This document shows positions 35,607-64,000 of a stretch of DNA of 64,000 bases, one piece after another; the stretch's first letter is position 1, and the number at the start of each line of letters is the position of its first letter. A model generated the notes under the pieces. That model was not told the origin of the DNA and did no database searches. It saw only the letters and a program-made list of their open reading frames with translations. The position numbers and the translations under genes were made by a program. Source of the stretch: an uncultured Planctomycetia bacterium (GTDB lineage Bacteria > Omnitrophota > Gorgyraeia > 2-02-FULL-51-18); contig CAZSGP010000001.1 in NCBI GenBank assembly GCA_964606485.1, positions 417,085-481,084 on the forward strand, written 5' to 3'.

Positions 35607-35640
35607 TTGGTTATCGTTGACCGTTTGGGAGGAGCTCGGC

Positions 35641-45175: not shown

Positions 45176-45187
45176 AAATTTATCTGC

Positions 45188-45397: not shown

Positions 45398-45616
45398 AGA
45401 GCCGCAATAAAAATATTTTTCCAGCCGGAATTTCGCGGCAATTCGTAATTTTATCCAAAGTAAGCGCAATTAAGCGATAAAACGTGAAGATACACTACGA
45501 GCCATCAAAAGCATTTTTTATATGGCTAAAGAAGTTAAAGATTTTTAAGAAGTGCTCTTGTAAGCGGGTCATTCATATGCCAGACTTTTTCCGTGGTAGG
45601 ATTGGAGGTCTGAGCA

Positions 45617-45862: not shown

Positions 45863-45889
45863 GTTAGTCAGCAATCTCCAAGTAAAAGT

Positions 45890-45923
45890 CGAAGCGTTTT
45901 GGCGCTTCGGCTTTTTTGTTTTT
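45890..45923 (+). terminator. Rho-independent terminator
   Basis: CGAAGCG-ttttgg-CGCTTCG then CTTTTTTGTTTTT. Confidence 0.6.
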
Positions 45924-46034
45924 ATCAGATAAGCCCATCCAGAATAGTCCGTGACAAATCTCTTTTCCCTCTGTTATTATTAGGTATCAGTTTCGGATAA
46001 TTACGGTTATCAACGGAAAAGGGCGATTAATAAA

Positions 46035-46241
46035 ATGACCACAGATATCATGTCTTTGCCAGAGGTCTGCGAATACCTAAAGCTGACCAAAAGCACTGTT
46101 TATAAGCTTTCGCAAAGAGGGGATTTGCCGTCTTCGCGCATTGGAAGACAACTGCGTTTTCGGAAGTCCAGGGTAGATTCTTGGCTCGATTCAAGAGAAA
46201 TTCAGAAAGCAAAGAAAGCGAAGAAATCAGCAAGACGTTAA
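46035..46241 (+). CDS. Excisionase/AlpA-family helix-turn-helix DNA-binding protein (HTH_17-like)
   Basis: 68 aa. LPEVCEYLKLTKSTVYKLSQRGDLPSSRIGRQLRFRKSRVDSWL. Resembles the protein at 56478-56672. Confidence 0.7.
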   Translation: MTTDIMSLPEVCEYLKLTKSTVYKLSQRGDLPSSRIGRQLRFRKSRVDSWLDSREIQKAKKAKKSARR

Positions 46242-46270
46242 ACGGCGGCTGCATGTAGCGACGGAGATTC

Positions 46271-47218: not shown

Positions 47219-48101
47219 TAGAATTTCAACACAAGACCTTGAAGCCAAAAGGTGGCCATATTATCTCATTTACCCCATGACATCGCTTTTGGTTCTGTGG
47301 GCTGTCCTTAAGAAGAAACTCTATGGGTTATTCCGGCCAAGGAAGGAAGTCAATTTTCTGCTTTTTGATGGAATTGGCAAATATGGCAAAGTTATCAAAC
47401 GAAATGTGACTGGCTGGAGAGCGGTCGATTTGATTTATAACCACCGTTTTGGCGAGACGAAATCGATTGGTGGCCGCCTTGATGATTTTTGGTTTGATAG
47501 TCTCAATTGTCAGGCTGCAAGAAACCGCTTCAAATTAGCAAAGAGGGAGCTGGAGAAGGCGATATTGAATACACCAGCCTCTGAAGTAAGAGTGCTTTCA
47601 TTGGCATCTGGGACCGGACAAATCGAAAGCGAAACGTTGGCAAATGTAAGAGATAAAAACGTAAACGTCAAAGCAGTCCTCATCGACCGTGAGGCTGAAG
47701 CGCTCGAACGAGCAGAACACTTTATTTCGTCAAACGGAGTTTCCGAAAGCATTAAGTTAATCAATTCAGACGTGATGCAGGCGATCGAAATTGCAAAAGA
47801 ATTTAATCCGCATATCATTCAAATGGTGGCGTTCTTGGATTATCTGCAAGAACAGGAGGCAATTGATTTCTTGTCGGATATCTATGGCACTCTCCCGGAG
47901 GGAGGGTATTTTATCGCGTCAAATACGATGCCAAATCTTGAAATGCATTTTGTAAAAGAGGTGGTTGGCTGGCCCCTGATATACAGGAACCATGAAGAGA
48001 TAGGGCGTATATTTGAAAAAAGCGGCTTCAAAAATGCCCAAATTATTGACGAACCTTTAGGTATTCAAAATATGATAGTCGCTAAAAAGCAGGCTGGGTA
48101 G
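47205..48101 (+). CDS. Class I SAM-dependent methyltransferase
   Basis: VLSLASGTGQIE (motif I, GxGxG-like), acidic residue after beta2 (LIDRE), LINSDVM. The ATG at 47205 overlaps the upstream stop. Confidence 0.55.
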   Translation: MAIHNRISTQDLEAKRWPYYLIYPMTSLLVLWAVLKKKLYGLFRPRKEVNFLLFDGIGKYGKVIKRNVTGWRAVDLIYNHRFGETKSIGGRLDDFWFDSLNCQAARNRFKLAKRELEKAILNTPASEVRVLSLASGTGQIESETLANVRDKNVNVKAVLIDREAEALERAEHFISSNGVSESIKLINSDVMQAIEIAKEFNPHIIQMVAFLDYLQEQEAIDFLSDIYGTLPEGGYFIASNTMPNLEMHFVKEVVGWPLIYRNHEEIGRIFEKSGFKNAQIIDEPLGIQNMIVAKKQAG

Positions 48102-48109
48102 CCCGCCGG

Positions 48110-50350
48110 ATGAAATTTCTATTTATAAACTTTGTCATTGTTTTATGGATCACATCCCTCACCGCTTTTCTGCTTGGAATTTTTGCCTGGATAAGAAGAC
48201 GTAATACCGTCAACAAATGCTTTGCGCTCTACTGCTTCAGTATTTCATGGTGGAGCTTCTGCGAAATCTGGGGTATTTCCTGCAATTCGGAATCCACGGC
48301 TCTTCTTTGGACCCGCATTGAACAGATAGGCGTATTTTTTATTCCCACCTTTTTTGTCCATTTCGTCATATCGCTATTGAACATAAAAGACAAAAAATGG
48401 CTGCTTAAAACTGCATATATTTTCAGCTCAATTGCCGCTGCACTTTGCTTTACGCCGCTAATGATGGCCGGATCTGCTCCGATATCGGCAGCGCCCTACG
48501 TCAAACGCTTTGGTGTCCCAGGCGTTGCTTATCACTTTGCTATTTTATTCTTTCTAATCTTGATTGTGTATGGACTGAACGAACTATTTAAGGCATATCT
48601 TACTTCGCGGGGCGCGAGAAGGAACCAGCTGAAATATTTATTTTTTAGCACGCTTTTTGGATATCTTGGCGGCGGCGCAAACTTTTTATTGGTTTATAAC
48701 GTCAGCATTCCATTCCTTAATCCCTTTGGCACATATGCACTTCCAATTTATATAGCCGTTGTTACATATGCCATCGTCAAGTACCGGTTGATGGACATTA
48801 GAATTGCGGCGATAAGGACCGTAGTATTTGTCGGAGTATATGTCCCGGTTTTATTCTTGCCATTTATCGGTGGATTCATTTTAAAAAGCAAACTTGCTGC
48901 ATTAGCAGGAGAAAACTGGTGGATCATTCCTGCTATTGGATCAAGCATTTTGGCCCCTCTCGGAATATATATCTTTTTAAATATAAAAAATCGCGCCGAA
49001 GCGATGCTGCTGAAGGAGCAGAGGCAATATCAAGACACACTGTTGGGAATTTCAAAGAGCATGACGTATGAGCGCAACCTTGCGATTCTCCTTCAAAAGA
49101 TTGTTCAAGGCGTCGCTGATTCACTTAAATTAAACGCTGTTCATCTGTTTTTGGTGGATAAGGAAACGGGCCGCTATTTGCTAAAAGCATCGCATCCGAA
49201 GAGTTTATTATCAGAGCCAATGGCTTTTGAGACTGATGATCCTCTAATCAAGAAGCTGCTTAATGAAAAATCGTCAATTGTTATAGAAGAGGATCATATT
49301 CATTCAAAAACCGGCGCCGGTGAGGGAGATGGGCTTAAGCTGATGGAAGAAAAGAGCGGCATGAAAATTGCTTTAGCGACGCCCTCATTTGCTCAAAATG
49401 AACTCATCGCATTTTTGCTGCTCGGTGATAAGCCAAATGGGCATATGTATACCCAAGACGATCTGAATGTCTTTTCAGTGCTTGCGACCCAAGCTGCGCT
49501 TGCGATTGAAAATGCTATTTTTTATGAGGAGCAGGGAAAATCCCTGGCGCAGGAACTTCAAGAGCACAAGCTGAAATATTTAGGCAACATGGCTTCAAAT
49601 ATCAGCCACGATGTAAATAACCGGTTTAATAGCGTGGCGCTCGAAGCTTTTGAAATTATCGACCAAATCATGCCAGCTTTGAAACAAAAACTTGGAGCTA
49701 CTTCAATTCCGGACGGACTAAATGAATTGATCGAACGTATTTTGCAGAATCTCGACAAGATTTCCCACCATGCCCAAGCGGGCGGAGAAACCGTTGAAAG
49801 ATTTCGCCGCCGCTCTCGTCAGGCAAAAATCGAGCCCCTTGATTTGGCTGCTGTTATAGAGAGCACATTGTCGATCGTTGTTTATCCAAAAGAAAAAGCC
49901 GGTGAGATTGTCAAAGTAATCCCAAGAGAAGTGTATGGTTTAGAAGTAGATCTGCCAACGGGGTTCCCGAAACTTTCTGCAGAAGTTTTTTCTCTTGAAA
50001 ACACAATTGCCAATCTACTTAGAAACGCCTATGAAGCTCAGCAAAAAAGAAGAGAAATTATTGGGCGAGATGGATATAGCCCGTTTGTAAAAATTTCAGC
50101 GCAGGTTCTTGGTGACACAGCTGACATAAAAATTGCGGATAATGGGATAGGTATGACGCCAGACCAGCTAAATCAGATTTTTGTGCCGTTTTATACAACG
50201 AAAGTTAAAGGCACGGGCCTTGGACTCTCTATTTTGAAATCGATGATTGAGCTGCAACGCGGGAAAATTTCCGTTGACTCGGAATATGGAAAAGGAACAA
50301 CATTCACCATTACATTGCCAGTCGCAAAAGAAGGGAGTGAGAATGCCTAG
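48110..50350 (+). CDS. Sensor histidine kinase: N-terminal 7-TM sensor, GAF domain, HisKA/HATPase
   Basis: 746 aa. ~7 hydrophobic helices in aa 1-290. GAF-like middle (LLGDKPNG...ALAIENA). H-box NISHDVNNRFNSV. G-boxes DNGIGM and GTGLGLS. Confidence 0.85.
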   Translation: MKFLFINFVIVLWITSLTAFLLGIFAWIRRRNTVNKCFALYCFSISWWSFCEIWGISCNSESTALLWTRIEQIGVFFIPTFFVHFVISLLNIKDKKWLLKTAYIFSSIAAALCFTPLMMAGSAPISAAPYVKRFGVPGVAYHFAILFFLILIVYGLNELFKAYLTSRGARRNQLKYLFFSTLFGYLGGGANFLLVYNVSIPFLNPFGTYALPIYIAVVTYAIVKYRLMDIRIAAIRTVVFVGVYVPVLFLPFIGGFILKSKLAALAGENWWIIPAIGSSILAPLGIYIFLNIKNRAEAMLLKEQRQYQDTLLGISKSMTYERNLAILLQKIVQGVADSLKLNAVHLFLVDKETGRYLLKASHPKSLLSEPMAFETDDPLIKKLLNEKSSIVIEEDHIHSKTGAGEGDGLKLMEEKSGMKIALATPSFAQNELIAFLLLGDKPNGHMYTQDDLNVFSVLATQAALAIENAIFYEEQGKSLAQELQEHKLKYLGNMASNISHDVNNRFNSVALEAFEIIDQIMPALKQKLGATSIPDGLNELIERILQNLDKISHHAQAGGETVERFRRRSRQAKIEPLDLAAVIESTLSIVVYPKEKAGEIVKVIPREVYGLEVDLPTGFPKLSAEVFSLENTIANLLRNAYEAQQKRREIIGRDGYSPFVKISAQVLGDTADIKIADNGIGMTPDQLNQIFVPFYTTKVKGTGLGLSILKSMIELQRGKISVDSEYGKGTTFTITLPVAKEGSENA

Positions 50351-50705
50351 GACGTTATTAGTTATTGATGACGAAGTCGAAATGACGCGTATTTTAGTAG
50401 GCACATTTAGCAATCGCGGTTATACCGTCTTTGAAGCCAATTCCGGACACGATGCCATCTCTATTTTAGAGAAGAACCACATTGATGCCGTGACATTGGA
50501 TCTTAATATGCCGGGGATGGATGGAATTGCCGTTGCCGCAGAGATGAATAAGCGTTTCCCCAAGGTAAAGATTATCGTCGTCTCAGGCTTCGGTGGGGAA
50601 TATGACGAAGAACTTAAAACCGTCAAAGTCGACGCTCACATTCCAAAGCCGATTAACATGACGGCCTTACTCAAAAAAATTCCTGAATTGCTGGATGGAA
50701 AATAA
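50343..50705 (+). CDS. Single-domain response regulator receiver
   Basis: LLVIDDE...LDLNMPGMDG...IIVVSGFG...KPI. The start overlaps the kinase stop by 8 nt. Confidence 0.8.
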   Translation: MPRTLLVIDDEVEMTRILVGTFSNRGYTVFEANSGHDAISILEKNHIDAVTLDLNMPGMDGIAVAAEMNKRFPKVKIIVVSGFGGEYDEELKTVKVDAHIPKPINMTALLKKIPELLDGK

Positions 50706-51300
50706 GTCCAGAAGCGTGAAAAGTTCATCAAGAACTCAATTGGCAAGCACCGCTTACCATGAGGCGGCTCATGCAGTCGCGCGGCATTGTCTTGGCATCA
50801 AAATTAAAAAAGTAACAATTGTTCCGCACGATGATTGCTTAGGAAGTGTTTCGGGTCCGAGCGCGACCGGTAAACATCAATTGGACGTTGATAATTCAAA
50901 TCAGGCGCGACTAAAAGCTGAACGTGATGTTATGGTCTCACTTGCAGGAGGCATAGCCCAAAGGAAGTTTAGTCCGAAAAACTTCAGGCACGATCATTGC
51001 AGCCAAGACCTTCATCAAGCCATGGATATATTGAGTTATTTCGCAGGGTCGCATGACGAATTGAATGCCTACCATAGTTATTTGAGTAAGCGAACAGAGA
51101 ACCTGCTTAGTAAGCCAATGGTATGGACAATGATACAGGCTGTGGCAAAAGAACTTCTATTCCGCCAGACCCTGACAGGTGCTCAGGTTAAGGAGATTAT
51201 ATTTAACGCATTTCCTGATCTTAAAGCTTTTTCAGATCGCTCCAAGGTTTCAGCAAAGTCAAAAACTTTGACCAAGCGAGGATTTAAGAGTAACATTTAG
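50695..51300 (+). CDS. Standalone FtsH-like (M41) zinc metallopeptidase domain, no AAA ATPase
   Basis: 201 aa. AYHEAAHAVARH (HExxH), then KVTIVPHDDCLG and LAGGIAQRKF, colinear with the FtsH protease domain (YHEAGHA...KVTIIPRG...LGGRAAEE). Confidence 0.55.
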   Translation: MENKSRSVKSSSRTQLASTAYHEAAHAVARHCLGIKIKKVTIVPHDDCLGSVSGPSATGKHQLDVDNSNQARLKAERDVMVSLAGGIAQRKFSPKNFRHDHCSQDLHQAMDILSYFAGSHDELNAYHSYLSKRTENLLSKPMVWTMIQAVAKELLFRQTLTGAQVKEIIFNAFPDLKAFSDRSKVSAKSKTLTKRGFKSNI

Positions 51301-51401
51301 CTAACGACATACTGAAGCAGTCCCAAGGCTGTTTTTTAGCCACTGATAGAAATGTGAGCAACATTCTATCGGTGGCTTTTTCTTTTTTGGAGGCCTTTTG
51401 G

Positions 51402-52409
51402 ATGAGGATGTTTAAGGCGTTGTTGCCATATTACGGTGGGAAGAGAAAGCTTTGCCCAATAATCTTTAGTCACATCTCAAAGTATCTTCCAAGGGATAAA
51501 TGGGCGGGAGCGGTATTTGTGGACGCTTTTTTAGGAAGTGGGGCGGTCAGTCTCTATGCCAAGGCTCAGGGTTTTCAGATCTACGCTAATGACATCGCCG
51601 AGCGAAGCTATATTGCTGGGCAATCACTTATTGAAAATAACAACATAGTGCTCACCGACAATGATCTCCATCGATTATGTCGTCCTAATGGCGATGTAAC
51701 GCCATTTATTCAGGAACATTTTTCTCCCGACGTCTTTACCTCAAAACATGCTGCATTTCTAGACGGTGCTTTTTCGAACGCCAAGAAACCACTCGATAAG
51801 TATTTACTCTTGAAATACATCTTCGCCATTAGACCCTATTCTAAATTCAGTTCACCCAATGCGTTTAATCGGCCAATGGAAGAGGGCCGCTTTGATGAAA
51901 TTAAATCCACGTACACAAAACACATCAAGGACAATCTGAAATCACCACTATCTATTTTAAAAAACGAAATGCGGAATGTAAATCTTGGCATATTTTCCAA
52001 TGGACTAAACAACTGGATAGCCAAGAAAGACGTATTTGAGTTTCTTGATGATGCCGAAGGGGATGTTCTTTACCTCGACCCTCCTTACGCCGGGACACTT
52101 GCTTACGAGAACGAGTATGAAGTGCTCGACAAGATATTAGGGCAGAACGAGAACCCTAAAAGTGATTTCTCCAGTGGGATGGATGCGCTGGGTAGGCTTT
52201 TAGCAGAGTGCGAGAAGTATCCGCTGTGGGTCATCAGTTTCGGAAACGCTGGTGGAAAGAACGAATTAAACGAACTATTGGGTATCGTCAGTAAATACCG
52301 TAAATGCGAAGCCCATGAGTTTCATTATCGGCACTGCGCGGCAGTAGCCTCGGAAGCGCACAAACAAAAATCAAGGGAGTGGCTCATTCTTGGAAATCAC
52401 ACAAGTTAG
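51402..52409 (+). CDS. DNA N6-adenine methyltransferase, D12 (Dam) class
   Basis: LPYYGGKRKL (Dam N-terminal motif), FVDAFLGSGAV (motif I), LYLDPPY (motif IV). Start placed at the ATG at 51402; the track ORF begins at 51354. Confidence 0.8.
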   Translation: MRMFKALLPYYGGKRKLCPIIFSHISKYLPRDKWAGAVFVDAFLGSGAVSLYAKAQGFQIYANDIAERSYIAGQSLIENNNIVLTDNDLHRLCRPNGDVTPFIQEHFSPDVFTSKHAAFLDGAFSNAKKPLDKYLLLKYIFAIRPYSKFSSPNAFNRPMEEGRFDEIKSTYTKHIKDNLKSPLSILKNEMRNVNLGIFSNGLNNWIAKKDVFEFLDDAEGDVLYLDPPYAGTLAYENEYEVLDKILGQNENPKSDFSSGMDALGRLLAECEKYPLWVISFGNAGGKNELNELLGIVSKYRKCEAHEFHYRHCAAVASEAHKQKSREWLILGNHTS

Positions 52410-53043
52410 AATAGACAAAATACACCCAAACAAATACAACCCGAATGTTGTACCAGCCGACATCATTGCCAAATTACGGGCAGAAATTGGCCAGAAAGGG
52501 CTCTGTGAGCCCATCATGGTGCGCTTCAGCCCCAATGGCTACGAAATTGTAAATGGCGAGCACAGGTGGCGGATTTGCCGGGATTTGGGCTGGCGGGAGA
52601 TCCCGTGCATTATTCAGGACTATGACGACAACGAAGCTAAAATAAAGACTTTGCAACTCAACTACATGCACGGGTCGGTCATCCCGGTCAGACTCGCATC
52701 GCTTATCCATGATTTGAGCAAAGAGATAAAACTCGAGGATTTGGCAAAGCGCCTTCCGTATGAAGAACTCCATTTGATGGACCAGTTGGAGCTCTTGAAG
52801 CTGCCGGAAGATTTTGGAAGCGCGCTCGAGGATAGAGCCAAGAAAGACGATGAAGAAATGCCTTCCGTCGTTTCTTTCGTACTTTATAAGAGTCAACTTC
52901 AAGTGCTTGAAGAAGCAATCCGGGCTATAGCCGAAGTCATACCAAAGGGTACGAAAAATACGAAAGCCGTCGCGCTTGAAGCGATTTGCTCATATTTCCT
53001 TGAGACCAAAGGGCTTAAGCAAGATTTGGAGTCGGCAACCTAA
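52390..53043 (+). CDS. ParB-like nuclease domain protein (ParB/Srx fold)
   Basis: GYEIVNGEHRWRICRDLGW is the ParB N-terminal domain GxxR motif. Common phage-encoded partner of Dam-type methylases. Confidence 0.7.
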   Translation: MEITQVRIDKIHPNKYNPNVVPADIIAKLRAEIGQKGLCEPIMVRFSPNGYEIVNGEHRWRICRDLGWREIPCIIQDYDDNEAKIKTLQLNYMHGSVIPVRLASLIHDLSKEIKLEDLAKRLPYEELHLMDQLELLKLPEDFGSALEDRAKKDDEEMPSVVSFVLYKSQLQVLEEAIRAIAEVIPKGTKNTKAVALEAICSYFLETKGLKQDLESAT

Positions 53044-53078
53044 GAACAGCAGGGCGGAGAATTTCGGAGTTTTAGGAT

Positions 53079-53585
53079 ATGGGGTACGAGCCGGTAAAAG
53101 ACGAAACCAAAGAGTTGTATCTCAAGATTTGGATGCACTACTGCGTCGGGCATCTGAGCCAGGAGCAGCTTGCCAAGCTATTTGATTGCAGCCAGGACAC
53201 CATCGCCAACGCTATCAACTGGGCGGCAGAGAATAGGGCTCAATTTGCAACGCCAATTCTCGGTGAGGCGGCCAAAGAGTCACTCGAAAGCCGTCTTCGT
53301 GACTTACGAAATGACCTGGTGAGAATTAAAGAGTCAGAGCCGGTGAACTGGAACGCCGTCATAGGCATGCACAAGTTAATTAAAGAAAACGAGGAGTTAC
53401 TGTGGAAGCTTCAGGCGGTGATTCAAGACCGGAGCACGATTACGATAAATGCGGCCCAAATAAACCAAGTAGCAAAAGCCCGTAACGAAATCCTGGAAGG
53501 TATGAACGATGAAGAGCGACAGGCCCTTATATCCCGAATTAGAGAAGTTACTGACAAGCCGGTCGACGACCAAAGAGGAAATTGA
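53079..53585 (+). CDS. Putative phage terminase small subunit (HTH-containing)
   Basis: 168 aa. N-terminal HTH (LSQEQLAKLFDCSQDTIANAINWA). Sits directly upstream of the large terminase. Position-based call. Confidence 0.35.
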   Translation: MGYEPVKDETKELYLKIWMHYCVGHLSQEQLAKLFDCSQDTIANAINWAAENRAQFATPILGEAAKESLESRLRDLRNDLVRIKESEPVNWNAVIGMHKLIKENEELLWKLQAVIQDRSTITINAAQINQVAKARNEILEGMNDEERQALISRIREVTDKPVDDQRGN

Positions 53586-55068
53586 TGATCTCCTTTGGTT
53601 TCTGGAGCACCCCGAATACGAACACCGGGTTGTCGATATCCGGACCTTCATTGATAGCCCCGAATATCTAAACGCCAAATCCGAGTGCTGGCCAAGCGTC
53701 AAAGACGACCTTGTGGTATTGTTCGAGGGCGGTTATACAGAAGCCGTGTTCTGTGAGGCTATTGGTTCAGGAAAAAGCTACAAGTCGTCACTCATCATAA
53801 GTTACATGACCTATCGGGTGTTATGTCTTCGGGACCCGCAGAACTTTTTCGGTTTAGCTAAGGGTAGTCCCATTTGTTTTATCAATATGTCCGTGCGGGC
53901 CGAGCAAAGCCGCAAGGTTGTATTCGGTGAAATCAAAAGCCGTGTTGACAATAGCCCGTGGTTTCGTAAATATTATCCTCCCGATTCTGAAATCAGGTCC
54001 GAGCTTCGTTTTGCAAAAAATATCGTAGTATTCCCCGGCAACTCCAGAGAAACATTCCCACTTGGATTTAATATCCTAGGTGGTGTTATGGACGAGGCCG
54101 CCTGGTATACCGAAACCTCAGACCATGATGTAGCCGAGGAAATGTTCAACGCTCTCCATAGCCGCATCAAAAATAGATTCGGGGATAAGGGTTTGCTGGT
54201 AATGATTTCATCCCCGAGATACGTCGATGATTTTATTGAACTCAAAGTCAAAGAAGCGCTGACCAACCAAAAAATATTCTCACGCAGAAAAATGCTTTGG
54301 CAGTCAAAACCAGCGCATTGCTTTTGCGGCCAATGGATTGACTTCCAGGACTATAAAATTCCTATTGAATTTGAGATTGAGGCCAAGCGCAATCCCGAAA
54401 CCTTCAAGCGTGATTTTATGGCCATCCCGGCCCTGGCACTTGAGCCATATTTCAAACGAATGGACATCGTTGAGTCGTGCATTGATTTGAGTATGCATCA
54501 CCCAATAGATGACACTGGGAAATTTCAACCCTGGTTTCGTGGCAAATTAAAAACGTATTACTATGTCCATGTGGATCTCTCTCACAAGCGAGACGCCACA
54601 GGTATTGCCATGGCGCATGACGAGGGGGACAAGGTTATCGTTGATTTCATGCTGCGCATCAAAGCTCCTGTAGGAGGTGAGATTTACTTCTCCGACATCC
54701 GGGACATGATTTTTCGACTGAGAGATGAATGTCGATTCAAAATTGATAAGGTTACTTTCGATGGGTGGCAGTCCATTGATAGTATTCAGATCCTGAAAGA
54801 GAATAGATTCAAATGTGGAGTCTTTAGCGTCGATAGGGACACGAGCGCCTATGACACTTTAAAGGAGAAAATGTATTCCAGGAAACTACGCTGCTACCGC
54901 TACGAGCCGTTTCTTGAAGAGTTAAAAAGGTTGGAGTTGTTTGAAGGCATCAAGGTTGACCATCCACCCAGCGGTTCAAAGGATGTTGCCGATGCTGTCG
55001 CTGGGGCTTGTTATGCTGCCGTGGAAAATGAAGGCAAGATTCGGGAGGTTCAATGTTTTATCGTCTAA
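53509..55068 (+). CDS. Phage terminase large subunit (ATPase plus RNase H-like nuclease)
   Basis: Walker A EAIGSGKSY, Walker B/coupling GGVMDEAAWY, C-terminal nuclease acidic residues (HVDLSHKRDATGIAMAHDEG, FDGWQ). The 5' end overlaps the previous ORF by 77 nt, so the true start is uncertain. Confidence 0.7.
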   Translation: MKSDRPLYPELEKLLTSRSTTKEEIDDLLWFLEHPEYEHRVVDIRTFIDSPEYLNAKSECWPSVKDDLVVLFEGGYTEAVFCEAIGSGKSYKSSLIISYMTYRVLCLRDPQNFFGLAKGSPICFINMSVRAEQSRKVVFGEIKSRVDNSPWFRKYYPPDSEIRSELRFAKNIVVFPGNSRETFPLGFNILGGVMDEAAWYTETSDHDVAEEMFNALHSRIKNRFGDKGLLVMISSPRYVDDFIELKVKEALTNQKIFSRRKMLWQSKPAHCFCGQWIDFQDYKIPIEFEIEAKRNPETFKRDFMAIPALALEPYFKRMDIVESCIDLSMHHPIDDTGKFQPWFRGKLKTYYYVHVDLSHKRDATGIAMAHDEGDKVIVDFMLRIKAPVGGEIYFSDIRDMIFRLRDECRFKIDKVTFDGWQSIDSIQILKENRFKCGVFSVDRDTSAYDTLKEKMYSRKLRCYRYEPFLEELKRLELFEGIKVDHPPSGSKDVADAVAGACYAAVENEGKIREVQCFIV

Positions 55069-55327
55069 AATTGTCTGATATTTGGGTGCTCGCCATGTTC
55101 TCGTTATTTTGAATTAAACATACATTTCTCACCCCGATTTCTACCTCGATTTTTTGAATAATCCGGTATCTCGCTAACGTTCAAAGAGTTGTGGCGTTTT
55201 CCAAGGCGCATGGCCCATTATTTACCCCCGCTATTGTTTGCGATTAAATTGAGTATTTAATCTCAAATAGACTGGATTTCCCCGGAATCCATGGCATCAT
55301 TCGACTGACAAAGGGGAGGGCACACCG

Positions 55328-56242
55328 ATGGACCGCGAAATTACCGAGTTTTTAGCCTATAAGGCTACAGAACGGGGGCTCACACCCCGGACCATAGAAG
55401 CATATCGCCACGATTTGGCTAAATTTGGCCAATTCATAGCCAAGGAAACCGGGTCTAAACCAGCGCTCGGCGATATCGACCAGTATACGATTAAGGCCTA
55501 CCTGCAATTTTTAGCGAACACAGGTATCAAGAAAGGAAACGCCACTGTAACCCGGGGCAGAAAACTCGCAACTCTGAAGTCATTCTTCAAATACCTCGTG
55601 TCCGAGGGGAAGGTAAAATCCGATCCCACCAGCCAAGTAAAGATGCCCAAGGTAAAACGGAAGGAGCCATCCTATCTAACCGAGCAGGAATACAAGCGGC
55701 TTCTGCGGACGGTTCAGAAGAACGCCACCAAATACTTCAAACACCGTGATGTTGCTATTATCAATATGCTTTTGGGCATGGGTCTGCGCCTGAACGAGTT
55801 AGTGGGCTTGAATGTGGGCAGCGTAAACGTCGAGGACGGGGCAATCAAGGTTTCAAGAAAAGGAAACCAGGAGCGTATACTTCCCGCGAATGACGAGGTG
55901 ATGATTTGCCTTCAACGATATTTGAAAACGAGGGCAGATGCCTCATTTTCATCACCCTTATTTTTAAGCAAACGTGACCAGCGAATCGATGGCGCTACGG
56001 TCTGGTATCTGGTAAAAAAATATCTGAAACAAGCGCAGATAGAAAAGGACAAGCTATCACCCCACACCCTGCGGCATACGTTCGCAACGACCCTATTAAA
56101 ACAAGGGGTCAATATACTTGCCATCAAAGAGTTGTTGTCTCACCGCAATCTCCGCACCACGGAACGATACCTTCACATCACCGGCGAGGACTTAAAAATA
56201 GCCGTAGGAAAGATGGATCTAAACTCGAAAAAGAGCGGCTAG
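55328..56242 (+). CDS. Tyrosine site-specific recombinase/integrase (XerC/D-like)
   Basis: 304 aa. N-terminal SAM-like domain. Catalytic R...HTLRHTFAT...LSHRNLRTTERYLH, giving the R-H-R-Y tetrad. Confidence 0.9.
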   Translation: MDREITEFLAYKATERGLTPRTIEAYRHDLAKFGQFIAKETGSKPALGDIDQYTIKAYLQFLANTGIKKGNATVTRGRKLATLKSFFKYLVSEGKVKSDPTSQVKMPKVKRKEPSYLTEQEYKRLLRTVQKNATKYFKHRDVAIINMLLGMGLRLNELVGLNVGSVNVEDGAIKVSRKGNQERILPANDEVMICLQRYLKTRADASFSSPLFLSKRDQRIDGATVWYLVKKYLKQAQIEKDKLSPHTLRHTFATTLLKQGVNILAIKELLSHRNLRTTERYLHITGEDLKIAVGKMDLNSKKSG

Positions 56243-56478
56243 GGCTTACGTTTCTCTTTTTCGTCCCACTCGTGAAGTAGCTTGATAAAACCCACCATAT
56301 TATCCGTTATCTCCACTGCATCTTGGTACGTTAACGGCTCCTTGGAGCGCGGCTGCCATACCTTTAGTGTTTTATCCAAGAACTCCTTCGAGTATTTATA
56401 TTGCCAACTCATGCCACCTCCTTGTGTTAAGAATCTACTCTGCAGGATAACCCTTTTCTGGTAAAATTTAGCAAACAT
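56239..56478 (-). CDS. Hypothetical protein
   Basis: 79 aa, convergent with the integrase. No recognisable domain. Confidence 0.3.
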   Translation of the reverse strand: MFAKFYQKRVILQSRFLTQGGGMSWQYKYSKEFLDKTLKVWQPRSKEPLTYQDAVEITDNMVGFIKLLHEWDEKEKRKP

Positions 56479-56672
56479 TGGAAGGGCAAAGAATGACGGA
56501 CAAATGGCTTACCATCAACCAAATCGCTAGATATCTACAGGTTTCGAAAGAAAAAATCTACAAAATTTGTCAGAAGGGCAAAATGCCTGCCTCGAAATTT
56601 GGTGGGCAGTGGCGTTTTAAAAAAGAGGCGGTCGATAAATGGATGCTGGGCCAACAAAGGAAAAATAAATAG
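56478..56672 (+). CDS. Excisionase/AlpA-family HTH DNA-binding protein (HTH_17-like)
   Basis: 64 aa. LTINQIARYLQVSKEKIYKICQKGKMPASKFGGQWRFKKEAVDKWM. First gene of the methylase-helicase operon. Confidence 0.7.
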   Translation: MEGQRMTDKWLTINQIARYLQVSKEKIYKICQKGKMPASKFGGQWRFKKEAVDKWMLGQQRKNK

Positions 56673-56718
56673 CATTTTTTTGGGAAGAGACGACTTGCAA
56701 GGAGATCATAAAAGCAAA

Positions 56719-57810
56719 ATGAGAAGACGCACTAGACAAATAGTAGCTATCGATCTGTTCTGCGGCGCTGGTGGCCTGACCAAGGGCCTGGAGGATGCAG
56801 GGATAAAAGTGCGGCTGGGCGTCGACGCTGACCCGGCCTGCAAGTATCCCTTCTCGGCGAACAACAAAGCAAAATTTCTTCTCGCTAAGGTAGAAGACGT
56901 CAAATCCGAGCAGCTTAATGAGTTCTATGGAAAGAATAGCATTAGGGTCTTGGCAGGCTGTGCCCCATGCCAAACATTTTCTACCTATAATCAAAAAGCT
57001 AATAGTTCTGATGAGCGCTGGTGGTTGCTACTCCAGTTCTCTCGATTAGCGAAGGAAATACTGCCTGAAGTCATTACGATGGAAAATGTGCCGCGTTTAC
57101 AAAAGCAAGATGTGTTCGGCCGATTTGTGCGAGATCTCAAACGTTCCGGTTATTACGTGACTTCACAAGTTGTGAGTTGTCTCAACTACGGCGTTCCGCA
57201 GCAGCGCAAAAGACTGGTGTTGCTCGCCTCACGACTCGGGCCTATCGAGTTGAGAAGGCCGATAGATATTTCTAAATCAAATCTTACAGTGCGCAAACAT
57301 ATTGGATCTCTACCTACTATTAAGGCTGGTGCCGCTCATAAAAATGATCGGCTGCATCGAAGCTCCAATCTTTCTGAGATGAATCAGAGGCGCATCAGGG
57401 CTTCTGCGCCAGGTGGTACCTGGCGCGATTGGGATAATTCAATCGTGGCTAAGTGTCACAGAAAGAAACAGGGGAAAACTTATCCGAGCGTCTACGGAAG
57501 AATGAAGTGGGATGAGCCAGCCCCAACTCTGACCACTCTTTTTTTTGGGTTTGGGAATGGCCGCTTCGGGCATCCATCGCAAAACAGAGCCATTTCGCTG
57601 CGCGAAGGCGCTATTCTCCAAAGTTTTCCAAGGACCTACAAGTTCGTGGAACCAAGAAAGCCCGTGTTCACTAGAACCATAGGTCGATTGATTGGAAATG
57701 CCGTGCCCGTGAAATTAGGCACGGCTATTGGTGAGAGTATTTTGCAGCACGTTTCCGAATGGCGTGGGAGAAGACCTGCGCCACGCCTACAAAATCGAAA
57801 AGATAACTAA
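56719..57810 (+). CDS. dcm: DNA (cytosine-5)-methyltransferase
   Basis: Motif I IDLFCGAGGLTKG, motif IV GCAPCQTFS, ENV, QQRKRLVLLAS, motif X GNAVPVKLG. AAGGAG RBS 13 nt upstream of the ATG at 56719. Confidence 0.9.
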   Translation: MRRRTRQIVAIDLFCGAGGLTKGLEDAGIKVRLGVDADPACKYPFSANNKAKFLLAKVEDVKSEQLNEFYGKNSIRVLAGCAPCQTFSTYNQKANSSDERWWLLLQFSRLAKEILPEVITMENVPRLQKQDVFGRFVRDLKRSGYYVTSQVVSCLNYGVPQQRKRLVLLASRLGPIELRRPIDISKSNLTVRKHIGSLPTIKAGAAHKNDRLHRSSNLSEMNQRRIRASAPGGTWRDWDNSIVAKCHRKKQGKTYPSVYGRMKWDEPAPTLTTLFFGFGNGRFGHPSQNRAISLREGAILQSFPRTYKFVEPRKPVFTRTIGRLIGNAVPVKLGTAIGESILQHVSEWRGRRPAPRLQNRKDN

Positions 57811-60800
57811 TGCCCATTGAAGTCGAGTCGATACGAAGTAGTAAACCCTCTTCTCATAGCTATGTCGTGCCCGAGCAAGGCCAGCTCGTCGAAGTACGTC
57901 GCAGGCAATGGGTCGTTGCTGACGTGGCGAGGTCATCGCTTCAAAGCAATACCCACAAACAGTTCGAACATCTTTTACGGTTGGCTTCGATTGACGAAGA
58001 TGCTTTGGGTGAAGAGCTGCACGTTATATGGGAACTAGAGCCCGGTGCTCGAGTTCTGGAAAAAGCAGGGCTTCCGACACTTTCAGGGATTGACGAGTCA
58101 CGGCGAATGGATGCATTTTTAGACGCAATCCGCTGGGGTGCAGCCACGAATGTTGATATCCAAGCACTACAGGCGCCATTCAGGAGTGGCATAGCGATTG
58201 AGGATTACCAGCTAGATCCATTGGTCCGAGCGCTTGATATGCCTCGAGTCAATCTCCTGATTGCCGACGATGTGGGATTGGGAAAGACGATTGAGGCTGG
58301 GCTCATCATACAGGAAATGCTACTCCGATATCGAGCACGAACAGTACTAGTCGTTTGCCCAGCGTCTCTACAGGTGAAGTGGCAACAAGAGATGCGGGAG
58401 AAGTTCGGTTTAGATTTTAGGATAGTTGATACAGACTATATGCGCGAGCTCAGACGCTCTCGCGGGATTCATACGAATCCATGGACATCATTTCCGCGGC
58501 TCATTACTTCAATTGATTGGATCAAATCCGACTTCGCGATGACGATGATGAAGGATATTCTTCCCAGGATTCCGACTTATCCGAGAAAGTTCGATATGCT
58601 CGTCGTTGACGAAGCTCATAATGTTGCGCCAGTCGGCGGCGGAAACTACGCTGTCGATAGTTTGAGGACCCAGGCGATAAATGCGATCGCTCCTCATTTC
58701 GAGCACCGTCTTTTTTTATCCGCAACTCCTCACAACGGTGACAAAGTTTCTTTTACTGGGCTATTGGAGATGCTTGATAGTCAACGTTTCGCTAGAGGTA
58801 TCAGCCCAGATGCTAAAAGCCTAGAGCAGATCATGGTACGGCGGCTCAAGACAGATATTGTGGAAAAAGATGGAAAACCCGTGTTTCCTGTCCGAAAACT
58901 TGAAGCCCTGGAAGTCGATTATGCAGAAGAAGAACGTGAAATCCACGAGCTCTTAAAGCGATACAGCGAGTCGCGCGTAAAAAATGCCAAAGGCGTGGGA
59001 GGTGGGTACGGGACGTATTTCTTGCTTAAACTTCTCAAAAAGAGGTTGTTTTCTTCTCCCGCCGCATTTGCATCTACGCTGGAAAAGCACCGCGAGAACC
59101 TGTCAGGACGCCACGCCAAATCCACGGCTGATCACTTGGACGAGCGAATTCTTCATCAGGCTATACAACGTGTAGACGAAGATTACGCGGATGACGAAGT
59201 GAAGGAATCTGATTTATTGGACGCCATTCAAACAGCTACTGCATCGTGTGTCAGCGTTAATCCAAGTGAGAAGGAGATGCTAGATAAGATGACACGTTGG
59301 GCCGAGAAGGCTAGAGAAAAGCCAGATTCAAAGATGTCAGCCGTTATTGAGTGGTTAGACCTACATATTAAGCCCAAGGGCCAATGGGCAAGCGAGCGAG
59401 TAATTATTTTTACTGAGTATCGCACGACGCAGAAGTGGCTAGTGGACATCCTAACGGCCAAGGGATTCGGCGGACAAGATCGGCTGATGACAATCTATGG
59501 CGGGATGGACGTGAAACAAAGAGAGATGGTCAAGGCTGCTTTCCAGGCGAACCCTGAAGGGTCACCCGTGAGGATTTTGGTTGCGACGGACGCCGCTGCA
59601 GAGGGTATCGATTTGCAGAATCACTGCTCCCGCATGATCCATTTCGAGATACCTTGGAATCCAAATATCATGGAGCAGCGCAACGGGCGTATTGATCGAC
59701 ATGGGCAGCGTGATAAAGAGGTCCAAGTCTGGCATCCCGTGAGTAAGGGCTACGGAAAGAAGATCGGTGAGGGAAGAGAGCGGGTGGGCGCGCTTGATGG
59801 AGATCTTGAGTTTTTGATGGCTGCTGCGAAAAAAGTAGAGTCGATTCGGCAGGATTTGGGCAGCGTCGGTTCCGTGATTGCCCAGCAAATTGAAGAAGCC
59901 ATGATTGGGAAAAGAATCTCTCTGGATACGCGAAACATTGAGACGCAGGCTACGGAAACACGGAAGCGACTTCCAACCGAAAAGAGGATCCGCGAGCGTG
60001 TTGAGCGCTTGCATCAGAGACTGCTAGAAAGCGTAGAAGCTTTCCGACTGAGCCCAGAAAACGTGGCTAATGCTGTGAAGGTTGCTCTTGAGATAGCGAA
60101 TCAACCGGCGTTGCGGCCAATCCGATTCAGTGGTGCCCCGGAGGGAACAGTTTTCGAGATGCCTGCATTTCAAGGAACGTGGGCGCGATGTGCGGAGGGC
60201 CTTGCCCATCCCCACACGCAGGCAAAACGCCCGATTACATTTCACCATGATGTGGCCAAAGGACGCGATGACGTGGTTTTGGTTCATTTGAACCATCGCC
60301 TCACACAACTGTCCCTCGGTTTGTTACGAGCAGAGGTATGGGCGATGGAGGATACCAAGAAACTCCATCGTGTTGTCATCCGAAGTATTCCAAAAATGTT
60401 TTCCGAGCATCCGGTTATAGGAGTTTGGTCACGTCTAGTTGTTACCGGAAAGCAGTCGCACCGATTACACGAAGAGCTAACTCTCTCCGGCGGGCAAATC
60501 TGCCAGGGGAAGCTTGAAAGATTGAGCGTGACCCAAATGCAAGAGATTGCAGATGCATCACGTAATGAGCCACCAACAAATTTCCGTCTAAATGATCTGA
60601 AAAAAGTATGGCCTGACCTTGAGTCTAGTATTTTGGGCGCAGTCGAGGCGAGGTCCAGAGACCGTATGCGGAACCTCGAAAGTACACTAAAAATAAGGAA
60701 AGAAAAACTTGTGAAGGATGCAGCCGATATTCTGTCGGAGCTCAAGGCCACCATTGAAAGAGAAATCAACGACACGAATCCTGCTAGTCAGCAGCTTGAG

Positions 60801-60992
60801 TTCTGGAAGAGTGAAGAAAAGATCCAGCTAGAAAAGAACACATCAAGTCTGCGGTCTCGCATGGCTGAGATTCCAAAAGAGATCGAAGAAGAAAAGCGCT
60901 CAATAGAAACACGATTTGATTCGCCGGTAGCTAGGACGTTCCCCGTTGCTATCAGCGTATTTGTGCCATCGGATGGAGAGGGGAAGCTCTGA
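57810..60992 (+). CDS. SNF2-family helicase (DISARM DrmD-like)
   Basis: 1060 aa. LLIADDVGLGKTIEAG (motif I), LVVDEAHNV (DEAH), helicase-C ILVATDAAAEGIDLQ...EIPWNPNIMEQRNGRIDRHGQ. The start overlaps the dcm stop (TAATG). Confidence 0.85.
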   Translation: MPIEVESIRSSKPSSHSYVVPEQGQLVEVRRRQWVVADVARSSLQSNTHKQFEHLLRLASIDEDALGEELHVIWELEPGARVLEKAGLPTLSGIDESRRMDAFLDAIRWGAATNVDIQALQAPFRSGIAIEDYQLDPLVRALDMPRVNLLIADDVGLGKTIEAGLIIQEMLLRYRARTVLVVCPASLQVKWQQEMREKFGLDFRIVDTDYMRELRRSRGIHTNPWTSFPRLITSIDWIKSDFAMTMMKDILPRIPTYPRKFDMLVVDEAHNVAPVGGGNYAVDSLRTQAINAIAPHFEHRLFLSATPHNGDKVSFTGLLEMLDSQRFARGISPDAKSLEQIMVRRLKTDIVEKDGKPVFPVRKLEALEVDYAEEEREIHELLKRYSESRVKNAKGVGGGYGTYFLLKLLKKRLFSSPAAFASTLEKHRENLSGRHAKSTADHLDERILHQAIQRVDEDYADDEVKESDLLDAIQTATASCVSVNPSEKEMLDKMTRWAEKAREKPDSKMSAVIEWLDLHIKPKGQWASERVIIFTEYRTTQKWLVDILTAKGFGGQDRLMTIYGGMDVKQREMVKAAFQANPEGSPVRILVATDAAAEGIDLQNHCSRMIHFEIPWNPNIMEQRNGRIDRHGQRDKEVQVWHPVSKGYGKKIGEGRERVGALDGDLEFLMAAAKKVESIRQDLGSVGSVIAQQIEEAMIGKRISLDTRNIETQATETRKRLPTEKRIRERVERLHQRLLESVEAFRLSPENVANAVKVALEIANQPALRPIRFSGAPEGTVFEMPAFQGTWARCAEGLAHPHTQAKRPITFHHDVAKGRDDVVLVHLNHRLTQLSLGLLRAEVWAMEDTKKLHRVVIRSIPKMFSEHPVIGVWSRLVVTGKQSHRLHEELTLSGGQICQGKLERLSVTQMQEIADASRNEPPTNFRLNDLKKVWPDLESSILGAVEARSRDRMRNLESTLKIRKEKLVKDAADILSELKATIEREINDTNPASQQLEFWKSEEKIQLEKNTSSLRSRMAEIPKEIEEEKRSIETRFDSPVARTFPVAISVFVPSDGEGKL

Positions 60993-63900
60993 TGAACCAA
61001 CACGCAGAACTTTTGTCTCTCATAGAACACACTGGCCCGTTTCTCACAGAACCGGTCTTGGACCGCATTTTTCCGCAAGGCATAGATCCTATAGAACACG
61101 GGACCGGAGCGCGTCTGAGATCTGCTTATACGGAATGGACAGAGTCTCAACAGCGTTGCGATGCTGAAAGCCCCAAAATACATGCGGCTTGGATCGATAT
61201 GATGTTGAGAGAGGGGCTTGATTACGAGGAGCGTAGTCTTCGGAGAGGATCTGCGGTATCTGTCGAAATCACAGTTGATCTCGCAGAGCATAACGAGAAG
61301 ATTTCTCCTGAAATAGCTCTCGTCAATCCGGAAGGAAGAACAAATGCTGGTAAAGCAAGGCTTCTGTTGGCCATTTGGCCATTTGGCCAGGATCTAGTCG
61401 GTCAAACGAAGGATTTAAAATGGGCGGCATCTCCCATCGAACGGATGACGGTATTGTGCCGCACCACTGGTACGCAGCTAGGTTTGGTAACCAATGGCGA
61501 AAGATGGACTCTTGTCGATGCGCGTGAAGGCCAAAGTGTAGCCATAGCGTCATGGTACGCACGGCTATGGTTTCAAGAACCATTGACCTTGCAGGGGTTT
61601 CTCTCGCTTTTGGGGGCCCGCCGGTTTTTTGGTGTGCCAGAAGGGGATACGATCGAATCACTTTTTGTGGAATCGAGCAATTACCAGGAAGAAGTCACGG
61701 ATCAGCTGGGACTCCAGGTCCGCCAAGCCGTTGAAGTTCTTGTCCAGGCGCTCGACCGTGCGGACAAGGACCGTAAACGTGAGCTTCTGAAAGATGTCGA
61801 TCCCGTGAGACTCTATGATGCCGCGCTGACTGTCATGATGCGCCTGGTATTCCTTTTTTGCGCCGAAGAACGCGGCCTACTTTTGCTGGAGGACGAAATC
61901 TATGATAGCTGTTATGCCGTATCCACTCTGCGCGGTCTATTGCGCGAACAAGCCGACAAAATCGGGCTCGAAGTTCTAGAGCGACGGCATGACGCTTGGG
62001 CCCGTCTTCTGGCTATTTTTCGAGCGATATACGGCGGGATCTACCACGAAAATTTACGGTTACCTGCTTTAGGGAGTTCATTATTCGATCCAGATCGGTA
62101 TCCATTTCTTGAGGGGAGGGGTGAGAAGACGAGCTGGAGGGATACACCAGCTTTTCCACTACCAATTGACAATCGAACTGTACTCCATCTACTTGAGTCC
62201 TTGCAACTTCTGCGAAGGAGAGGGGGGCGTGGCTTCCAAGAAGCCAGGCGGCTTTCTTTTCGCGCACTTGATATTGAGCAAATCGGTCATGTTTACGAAG
62301 GTTTGCTTGATCATGTTGCGGTGCGCGTCAAATCGCCAACCCTCGGTCTGGTCGGGGCCAAAAGGCAAGAGACCGAAATTTCGCTCGAAGATTTAGAAGA
62401 AAATAGAAAGAAAGGTGAAACCAAACTCATTGAGTTTCTGAACGAAGAAACAGGACGTTCTATCAATGCCTTGAAAAATGACCTCCACCGAAAACCCACG
62501 GAAGATATCCGATCAGCGCTTGTCACAGCTTGTGGGAATGACGAAGAACTCCTGGAGCGAGTTTTGCCATTCCATGCACTCATCCGGGACGACGTTTGGG
62601 GATACCCCGTGGTTTATCAAACGGGGAGTTTTATGGTTACTGGTGGCGCGGATCGACGGTCTACAGGAACTCACTACACACCTAAATCATTCACCGAAGA
62701 AATCGTTAAGGAAACACTCATTCCTCTCGTTTATGAGGGCCCCTCCGAAGGAAGGCTGCGTCATGCGTGGAAACTCAAATCAGCGGCTGAGCTTCTGGAT
62801 CTAAAGATTTGCGACATGGCCATGGGCTCGGCGGCTTTTCTTGTCCAGGTATGTGAGTGGTTGGGGGAGCGTATAGTCGAGGCGTGGATGCTAGCAGAGG
62901 AAATTGGGCAAATTGTTCTGGCGGATGGAAACGTGGTCCAAAATGCCAGTGGATTAGAAACATTAGCTCGCGACAAAGATGAAAGATTGTTGGTGGCAAA
63001 GCGACTAATTGCCGAGAAGTGTATTTACGGAGTAGATATCAATCCAATGGCAGTCGAACTTGCCAAGCTTTCGATATGGCTTGTGACGATGGCGAAAGGA
63101 CGTCCATTTGGCTTTCTTGATCATAATCTCCGGTGCGGGGATAGTTTGCTTGGCATCAATAGGTTAGATCAACTGACGAATTTAAGCATGGAACCAGATG
63201 ATAAATTTCAAGGGCGATTGTTTGGCCAAAAAATTGAGGTTGCCGTCAAGGAAGCTCTCCAAATAAGAAAAAAACTGAGAGAGATCCAGATTTTGGACAT
63301 CAATGATATAGACATCATGAAACGTCTGGACCGTGAAGCTAGGGAGAAGCTCGAAAACGTTGAGCTCATCGCAGATGCAATGATTGGCGAGGTTCTCTGC
63401 CATGGCAGCAATGAGAAAGCCCTTGAGGCAGCACTGTCAGTCTTGTCTGGATTGGCAGATGAATTAATCCTAGGTAAGGTTGGCGTAAAAGAGCGGATAC
63501 TTAAAACTGCTCAAGCAACGCTCGCTTGTGGTCTTCCCGCGGGAACGCCGCCGCGCATGCCATTTCACTGGGCGGTGGAATTTCCCGAAGTTTTTGCTCG
63601 GGAAGGATTTGATGCGATTGTGGGCAATCCCCCCTTTCTTGGTGGAACGCGTATCAGCGAGGTTTGCGGGGATGAATATAACTTATTTCTTGCTCTGCTA
63701 TGGCCGCCAGCATCTCGAAAGACAGACTTGTGTGCCTTTTTCTTTAGAAATGCCTATCTACTTTTGAGATCTAGGGGCTCACTTGGCATGCTCGCCACGA
63801 ATACCATATCTCAGGGGACTACGCGTAAGGGCGGGTTAGAAATTATCTTAACTAATGGAGGAAAAATTGTGCGTGCTTGGCCGTCTTTTAAGTGGCCGGG

Positions 63901-64000
63901 CACAGCATCAGTCATTGCTTCGGCCGTCTGGATTTTTAAAGGCGAATGGGGAGCTAAGTGCGTGGTTGATAACAACCTTTGTGCATATATCGATAGTCTT
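60992..64000 (+). CDS. Large N6-adenine DNA methyltransferase (gamma class; DrmMI/PglX-like), 3' end beyond window
   Basis: At least 1003 codons open to the window end. It is missing from the ORF track because no stop falls in the window. Motif I LDLKICDMAMGSAAFLV and motif IV AIVGNPPFLGG follow a ~650-aa N-terminal domain. The start overlaps the helicase stop (TGATG). Confidence 0.8.
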   Translation, partial: MNQHAELLSLIEHTGPFLTEPVLDRIFPQGIDPIEHGTGARLRSAYTEWTESQQRCDAESPKIHAAWIDMMLREGLDYEERSLRRGSAVSVEITVDLAEHNEKISPEIALVNPEGRTNAGKARLLLAIWPFGQDLVGQTKDLKWAASPIERMTVLCRTTGTQLGLVTNGERWTLVDAREGQSVAIASWYARLWFQEPLTLQGFLSLLGARRFFGVPEGDTIESLFVESSNYQEEVTDQLGLQVRQAVEVLVQALDRADKDRKRELLKDVDPVRLYDAALTVMMRLVFLFCAEERGLLLLEDEIYDSCYAVSTLRGLLREQADKIGLEVLERRHDAWARLLAIFRAIYGGIYHENLRLPALGSSLFDPDRYPFLEGRGEKTSWRDTPAFPLPIDNRTVLHLLESLQLLRRRGGRGFQEARRLSFRALDIEQIGHVYEGLLDHVAVRVKSPTLGLVGAKRQETEISLEDLEENRKKGETKLIEFLNEETGRSINALKNDLHRKPTEDIRSALVTACGNDEELLERVLPFHALIRDDVWGYPVVYQTGSFMVTGGADRRSTGTHYTPKSFTEEIVKETLIPLVYEGPSEGRLRHAWKLKSAAELLDLKICDMAMGSAAFLVQVCEWLGERIVEAWMLAEEIGQIVLADGNVVQNASGLETLARDKDERLLVAKRLIAEKCIYGVDINPMAVELAKLSIWLVTMAKGRPFGFLDHNLRCGDSLLGINRLDQLTNLSMEPDDKFQGRLFGQKIEVAVKEALQIRKKLREIQILDINDIDIMKRLDREAREKLENVELIADAMIGEVLCHGSNEKALEAALSVLSGLADELILGKVGVKERILKTAQATLACGLPAGTPPRMPFHWAVEFPEVFAREGFDAIVGNPPFLGGTRISEVCGDEYNLFLALLWPPASRKTDLCAFFFRNAYLLLRSRGSLGMLATNTISQGTTRKGGLEIILTNGGKIVRAWPSFKWPGTASVIASAVWIFKGEWGAKCVVDNNLCAYIDSL

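Follow-up and report, generated by a model that had tools for sequence, protein, structure and literature searches.

The DNA analysed is a stretch of 64,000 nucleotides (hereafter the window) from an uncultured Planctomycetia bacterium, placed by GTDB in the lineage Bacteria; Omnitrophota; Gorgyraeia; 2-02-FULL-51-18, and corresponds to positions 417,085 to 481,084 of the forward strand of contig CAZSGP010000001.1 (assembly GCA_964606485.1). An operon of the DISARM type, a defence system directed against phages and plasmids, begins near its right-hand end and runs past it. An earlier note on this DNA, made from the sequence alone, had described four consecutive same-strand genes here, for a helix-turn-helix (HTH) protein, a C5 methylase, an SNF2 helicase and an N6-adenine methylase, and all four open reading frames (ORFs) are found on the forward strand. 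They are an HTH_17 gene (56493..56672; 59 amino acids (aa); Pfam HTH_17), drmMII for a C5-cytosine DNA methyltransferase (56719..57810; 363 aa; Pfam DNA_methylase), drmD for an SNF2/RapA-like helicase (57810..60992; 1060 aa; NCBIfam DISARM_DrmD) and drmMI for a gamma-class N6-adenine methyltransferase (60992-65068; 1358 aa, of which 1003 lie inside the window).

The continuation of the contig past position 64000 was obtained from two entries, L001, retrieved by an exact-protein look-up with the helicase, and L085, retrieved through DrmB; the 16,191 nucleotides (nt) common to these extensions and the window are all identical. In window numbering, drmMI is followed there by drmA for a YprA-like SF2 helicase (65068-68967; 1299 aa), drmB for a DUF1998/MZB zinc-binding protein (68964-70844; 626 aa) and drmC for a PLD-family nuclease (70831-71619; 262 aa), the three genes that had been predicted to lie beyond the window. 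The complete order is thus HTH - drmMII - drmD - drmMI - drmA - drmB - drmC.

The genes are closely packed. Stop and start codons overlap as TAATG between drmMII and drmD (57808-57812) and as TGATG between drmD and drmMI (60990-60994), as had been read earlier, while a spacer of 46 nt separates the HTH gene from drmMII, so that overlaps within the window are limited to its last two junctions. Past the window the junctions are TAATG between drmMI and drmA, a 4-nt ATGA between drmA and drmB and a 14-nt overlap between drmB and drmC. These overlaps suggest that the genes concerned may be translationally coupled. Since all the defining class 1 components are present in the canonical order, the locus is assigned to complete class 1 DISARM and is, with a probability of about 0.88, a complete and apparently intact two-methylase system of this class, directed against phages and plasmids and carried in one tightly packed operon.

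Components of the class 1 DISARM operon

The SNF2/RapA-like helicase was assigned to DrmD by the NCBIfam equivalog model DISARM_DrmD (1324 bits; cut-off 610) and by the PADLOC DrmD model (1392 bits, full length); GLGKT and DEAH motifs are seen in it and RapA is its best relative in the PDB. A scan of the genome collection with DrmD as the sole query returned one distant locus, in a Longimicrobium metagenome-assembled genome (45% identity). The methylase that follows is matched by the PADLOC DrmMI model with 1356 bits for the part inside the window and 1758 bits, over the full length, for the whole protein, and the drmD-drmMI pair typical of class 1, which the earlier note had recognised, is thereby borne out. 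So is the description of the second member as a gamma-class adenine methylase of more than 1000 aa, since DMAMGS (motif I) precedes NPPF (motif IV), as it does in the gamma class. Pfam Eco57I, MmeI_Mtase and MmeI_TRD match DrmMI; among the NCBIfam models none matched it except, weakly, that of PglX. The protein ends 355 aa past the window in an MmeI-type target recognition domain (TRD); a fused endonuclease domain, which had been envisaged as a possible ending shortly after the window, is absent from its C-terminus.

Past the window, DrmA matches the NCBIfam model DISARM_DrmAS with 1375 bits (cut-off 950) and Serratia DrmA of PDB 7S9V with 1313 bits, and contains GGGKT and DEFH motifs. DrmB matches DrmB_fam of NCBIfam with 700 bits (cut-off 240), Pfam MZB (4.3e-10) and DUF1998, and Serratia DrmB in the same structure with 716 bits. 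DrmC matches Pfam PLDc_2 (1e-15) and, over its full length, the PADLOC DrmC model (252 bits), its HxKxxxxD motif reading HAKCAVAD. The Walker A and DExH motifs of DrmD and DrmA, NPPF of DrmMI and HxKxxxxD of DrmC are thus all intact in sequence.

A separate observation concerns the search models themselves. The PADLOC model PDLC02572, which is named 'DrmA', matches DrmD over its full length with 1330 bits, and therefore appears to be mislabelled.

The second methylase, DrmMII, shows a complete catalytic set of motifs (FCGAG, PCQ, ENV, QQRKR and GNAV) and matches Pfam DNA_methylase (E=1e-52) as well as the PADLOC models DrmMII (PDLC02651, 291 bits) and MTase_II (293 bits). Its occurrence elsewhere was surveyed by aligning 33 DrmD homologues and by searching the ORFs of 80 metagenome loci with the proteins of this locus, the subset considered being the 32 loci whose DrmD was close (identity of about 45% or higher) and whose upstream sequence extended over 1.3 kb or more. 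In 17 of these 32 the gene immediately preceding drmD, in the same orientation, encodes a DrmMII homologue, a minimum figure since divergent C5 methylases might escape detection. In the closest relative, L083, whose DrmD is 82% and whose DrmMII is 76% identical to those of the window, nucleotide homology starts 21 nt upstream of drmMII and extends to drmC; drmMII therefore belongs to the inherited unit, and its 1-nt overlap with the start of drmD points the same way. Among annotated RefSeq plasmids, p96k of Deinococcus sp. AJ005 has a C5 methylase and a Vsr gene located after drmC, and five others are without an adjacent C5 methylase. According to a bioRxiv account citing Ofir 2018 (10.1101/2021.12.28.474362), class 1 DISARM is sometimes accompanied by drmMII. 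The 5-methylcytosine (5mC) methylase, which had been regarded as an unusual extra, is accordingly an optional, common and already described member of class 1 DISARM.

The same combination is found in the class 1 DISARM of Serratia sp. SCBI (Aparicio-Maldonado et al. 2021, 10.1101/2021.12.28.474362; Bravo et al. 2022, PDB 7S9V/7S9W), which has the same six-gene content, C5 methylase included; the DrmA and DrmB encoded here are closely related to its own and the mechanism is presumably the same. It differs in that the window locus comes from an uncultivated lineage, that the TRDs and motifs of the methylases are probably different, and that no HTH gene at the operon head is mentioned in these accounts. 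On plasmid pR24_2 of Microvirga terrae (NZ_CP102847.1) the operon begins in the same order, HTH - C5 methylase - drmD - MmeI-like methylase ... drmA - DUF1998, with 45% identity between the HTH proteins and 57% between the C5 methylases. In addition, a Vsr gene separates its C5 methylase from drmD, and two further genes, for an O-methyltransferase and an ATP-binding protein, are inserted between its drmMI and drmA; none of the three is present in the window locus.

Extra genes between drmMI and drmA are a feature of many related class 1 loci, and the window locus has none. The commonest insert encodes a 655-aa ATPase of the HATPase_c_3 type (GHKL/MORC-like); inserts were located at 65-2041 of each of L086-L089 and at 19208-21622 of L092, and gaps of 2-4.5 kb separate drmMI and drmA in L011, L019, L028, L040, L042, L043 and L045.

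The relationship with L083 also reveals an uneven divergence of DrmMI, which is 76-92% identical over residues 1-800 and only 31-49% over residues 800-1358, whereas DrmD, DrmA and DrmB are about 65-92% identical throughout. The diverged stretch (15828-17255 of L001) includes the TRD. This points to a C-terminal, TRD-containing half that has diverged or been exchanged in the manner of a specificity-domain swap, and DrmMI would therefore probably recognise a different adenine-methylation motif from its counterpart in L083.

Two other identities were weighed for the system. The domain composition of DrmMI could be taken to indicate a stand-alone type IIG/IIL (MmeI-like) restriction-modification (R-M) enzyme with an N-terminal nuclease, in which case the C5 methylase would be an independent orphan or type II enzyme and the helicases mere neighbours. 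MmeI-family type IIL/IIG enzymes (PDB 5HR4) do have the architecture of methyltransferase and TRD in common with DrmMI, as the MmeI_Mtase and MmeI_TRD matches indicate; the PADLOC model PDLC03618 matches it over the full length with 1296 bits, MmeI_N matches it weakly (E=9e-4, 20 bits; gathering score 27), and the NCBI annotation pipeline (PGAP) calls its homologues 'type IIL restriction-modification enzyme MmeI'. The DrmMI model nevertheless scores higher (1758 bits), the protein is about 440 aa longer than MmeI, and its likeness to MmeI in the PDB is confined to the TRD. The MmeI_N match is limited to model positions 88-179, outside which we take the catalytic D/E/K motif of MmeI to lie, and among 21 homologues no D/E/K position conserved in at least 90% was found in residues 60-140; a conserved nuclease motif is thus not apparent in the N-terminal region. 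Given also that drmMI is overlapped by drmD and drmA amid a full set of drmD, drmA, drmB and drmC, a stand-alone enzyme is very improbable.

Even less credible is a BREX-like system, or a new hybrid of class 1 and class 2 DISARM with a new mode of action. DrmD does show a likeness to BrxHI/BrxHII (263 bits) and DrmMI a weak one to PglX (49 bits), and class 2 DISARM has a C5 methylase as its hallmark. However, a scan of the neighbouring genes gave no match to PglZ, BrxL, BrxC or DrmE, the NCBIfam model for BREX PglX reaches only 33 bits against a cut-off of 500, and class 1 layouts with two methylases are common and have been described and characterised before. The class 2 set of Bacillus paralicheniformis, as Ofir et al. 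2018 is summarised in 10.1101/2021.12.28.474362, comprises drmE, drmA, drmB, drmC and drmMII; in that summary the class has in common with the window locus the drmA-drmB-drmC core and a self-marking C5 methylase, but is without drmD and drmMI and often has drmE. BREX was rejected on the missing PglZ, BrxC and BrxL and the low PglX score, and class 2 was ruled out by the presence of drmD and drmMI together with the lack of a DrmE match (PADLOC). The hybrid, BREX-like or type ISP/IIG arrangements considered in the earlier note thus give way to a full canonical class 1 set.

The HTH_17 gene at the operon head

The first gene of the operon encodes a small protein that matches Pfam HTH_17 (E=2.9e-17), and a sequence search of the PDB with it gave no match. 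It had been placed at 56478; the ORF and its HTH domain stand, but 56478 is an in-frame TTG, and the ATG at 56493, preceded by a presumed GGAAGGG ribosome-binding site (56479-56485), is the likelier start. To our knowledge, no earlier account counts an HTH_17 gene at the operon head among the DISARM components. A regulator ahead of drmD has a precedent in a CapH-CapP fusion (10.1101/2022.04.27.489752), and in the methylation-based defence system MADS the first gene of the operon, mad1, likewise encodes a small HTH_17 protein, whose deletion had a limited effect on defence and which was grouped with 'widespread regulators'. The window protein reaches 67.1 bits with the MAD1 equivalog NF047737, under the cut-off of 80, and 6e-14 with PADLOC mad1. 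MADS itself was rejected as an identity for the locus, as the mad1 and mad2 matches are weak and at domain level and no other mad genes were found.

In 12 other DISARM loci the operon likewise begins with a homologue of the HTH protein, encoded on the same strand as the drmMII or drmD gene that it precedes. Eight of the 17 drmMII-bearing metagenome loci have one directly upstream of drmMII, and the Microvirga plasmid has the arrangement given above; L084 has the order HTH - Vsr - C5 methylase - drmD, and in two distant loci without drmMII the homologue is directly upstream of drmD. The upstream neighbours of these genes include TraG_N, a serine resolvase and proteins without a Pfam match, and in none of the 10 DISARM loci checked is the immediate upstream neighbour a tyrosine integrase.

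Several points weigh against reading the locus as a complete defence operon headed by its own regulator. The HTH protein matches an excisionase domain model, TIGR01764 'excise' (excisionase family DNA-binding), with 63.6 bits (cut-off 28.8), the PHROG family that fits it best is phrog_66 ('excisionase and transcriptional regulator'), and an integrase gene ends 250 nt upstream of it. It is not present in L083, the closest relative, where homology begins only at drmMII, and about half of the drmMII-bearing loci are without a homologue; the gene is therefore optional. A consensus promoter and terminator scan of 55000-58200 gave no two-hexamer site upstream of the HTH gene and a repeat search of 56413-56492 gave no operator-like palindrome. 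The presumed promoter/operator region in this forward-strand leader (56413..56492) is thus weakly assigned, an extended -10-like TGGTAAAAT at 56458-56466 having been read by eye. Single-gene deletions in Serratia showed several components to be dispensable (10.1101/2021.12.28.474362), so that even in that model it is not understood what DrmD and DrmC contribute, and for the window system the activity, the methylation motifs and the expression are all inferred.

The alternative that follows from the excisionase-type matches is that the HTH protein serves the neighbouring XerC/D-like integrase as recombination directionality factor, the operon proper then beginning at drmMII. The distribution described above argues otherwise, the homologues being found with DISARM genes in 12 other loci and none of the 10 upstream neighbours checked being a tyrosine integrase. 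Moreover, a minus-strand ORF and a hairpin lie between the integrase and the HTH gene, and the two are therefore not one transcription unit. As the gene travels with the operon and not with integrases, it is rather likely to encode an operon-associated transcriptional regulator, and an excisionase is unlikely. Its role would most likely resemble that of the controller proteins of R-M systems. A more specific proposal, that MAD1-like HTH_17 proteins are dedicated and recurrent controllers of two-methylase class 1 DISARM, which would time the expression of the methylases relative to that of DrmABCD on entering a new host as R-M C proteins do, is tentative and on present comparisons rather doubtful.

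Genomic surroundings of the operon

The integrase gene upstream of the operon (55328..56242, forward strand) encodes a XerC/XerD-like tyrosine recombinase of 304 aa, which belongs to the context and is not a DISARM component. It matches Pfam Phage_integrase (7.4e-39) and Phage_int_SAM_1, in agreement with the integrase noted earlier at this place, and the NCBIfam models XerD (241 bits) and XerC (229 bits), both under the equivalog cut-offs; it is not conserved beside related DISARM loci. Between it and the HTH gene lies a small minus-strand ORF (56239..56412; 57 aa in the gene call of the public assembly, 79 aa if started at the ATG at 56478). It converges on the integrase gene and diverges from the HTH gene, and no Pfam, PADLOC or PHROG match and no homologue in the other loci was found for it. 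At the convergent ends of this ORF and the integrase gene sits a perfect 10-nt inverted repeat, CGAAAAAGAG / CTCTTTTTCG (56226-56235 / 56254-56263), with an 18-nt loop.

Further upstream, 51354-55068 encodes a phage-type D12 adenine methylase, a ParB_N protein, a 168-aa protein without assignment and a 451-aa TerL-like protein (phrog_2, 1.8e-17; MJ0330_N in the precomputed Pfam annotation). The cluster looks like a remnant of phage or satellite packaging and partition functions, and the suggestion of a prophage remnant next to the operon is in that sense reasonable. On the other side, drmC is followed by genes for a 419-aa protein, a GIY-YIG protein, a Trypsin_2 protease, SpoVG, a 721-aa primase-like protein and a PIF1 helicase. 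The best explanation for these surroundings is that the DISARM operon is cargo among phage- or mobile-element-derived genes, with TerL-like, ParB-like and integrase genes on one side and the primase-like and PIF1 genes on the other. A search for att sites compared 43000-56720 with the 9 kb that follow drmC for direct repeats (minimum 13 nt) and did not locate the boundaries of such an element; no repeat exceeded 14 nt, which is at chance level.

The first two genes after drmC encode putative nucleases on the same strand (71653-73390; L085 12690-14427), with gaps of 34 and 20 nt. The 419-aa protein is a borderline match to PDDEXK_4 (22.1 bits; cut-off 22.3) and the 152-aa protein matches GIY-YIG (23.7 bits; cut-off 22.6). 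As the pair is not conserved after drmC in four relatives, it is probably a separate neighbour; a weaker possibility is that the PD-(D/E)xK-like and GIY-YIG genes are locus-specific alternative effectors in a system whose own PLD nuclease is dispensable. No conserved extra genes were found upstream of the HTH gene or downstream of drmC in the relatives.

In the remainder of the window, a giant ORF of 2942 aa (35587-44415) has Peptidase_C39 as its sole Pfam match, at about residues 1984-2070, and is followed from about 44 to 52 kb by a stretch of lower G+C content (41-43%) with a histidine kinase and response regulator pair. The first part, about 1-34 kb, looks chromosomal, with a cluster of the cell-wall/division type as judged by ORF sizes and order only, RibD (21617-22717) being the one protein identified; RNase P RNA (1386-1688) and tRNA-Met and tRNA-Val (63-247) also lie in it. 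The 10 housekeeping proteins tested were all singletons at 90% identity, and the host lineage is therefore poorly sampled. A homology search with RibD reached no more than 59-60% identity in its best hits, and the named relatives among the matches listed, at about 50%, were spread across Omnitrophota and Firmicutes.

Proposed mode of action and its significance

For the window locus a mode of action can be proposed from its homology with the Serratia sp. SCBI system, in which DrmMI introduces N6-methyladenine (m6A) at ACACAG and DrmMII 5mC at MTCGAK, methylation serving as an off-switch (10.1101/2021.12.28.474362), and for which a mechanism of DrmAB has been published (PMC9142583). By analogy, DrmMI would mark the host chromosome as self with m6A, probably at a non-palindromic motif read by the MmeI-type TRD, and DrmMII would do likewise with 5mC. 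The DrmA-DrmB helicase complex would be held auto-inhibited by a trigger loop and would load onto single-stranded 5' overhang DNA of an incoming phage or plasmid; its ATPase would be stimulated by unmethylated and reduced by methylated DNA, and the complex would stop the invader from replicating. Accessory roles may fall to the SNF2 helicase DrmD and to the PLD nuclease DrmC, the latter of which proved dispensable in those systems that were tested (10.1101/2021.12.28.474362; PMC9142583). The HTH_17 protein at the operon head would most likely act as transcriptional regulator of the operon.

The locus probably represents one more intact class 1 DISARM with two methylases, found in an uncultivated bacterium, in a family that counts thousands of members, and the divergence of the DrmMI TRD illustrates the kind of specificity switching that is familiar from R-M systems. 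For annotation it carries a warning, as the automated label MmeI for DrmMI and the 'DrmA' model of PADLOC can both mislead; the PGAP/RefSeq name given to the DrmMI homologues of L090, L091, L092 and L094 keeps these DISARM loci out of reach of searches by name. The one lead that is mildly new, the HTH gene that recurs at the operon head, offers a cheap and testable entry to the control of DISARM expression.

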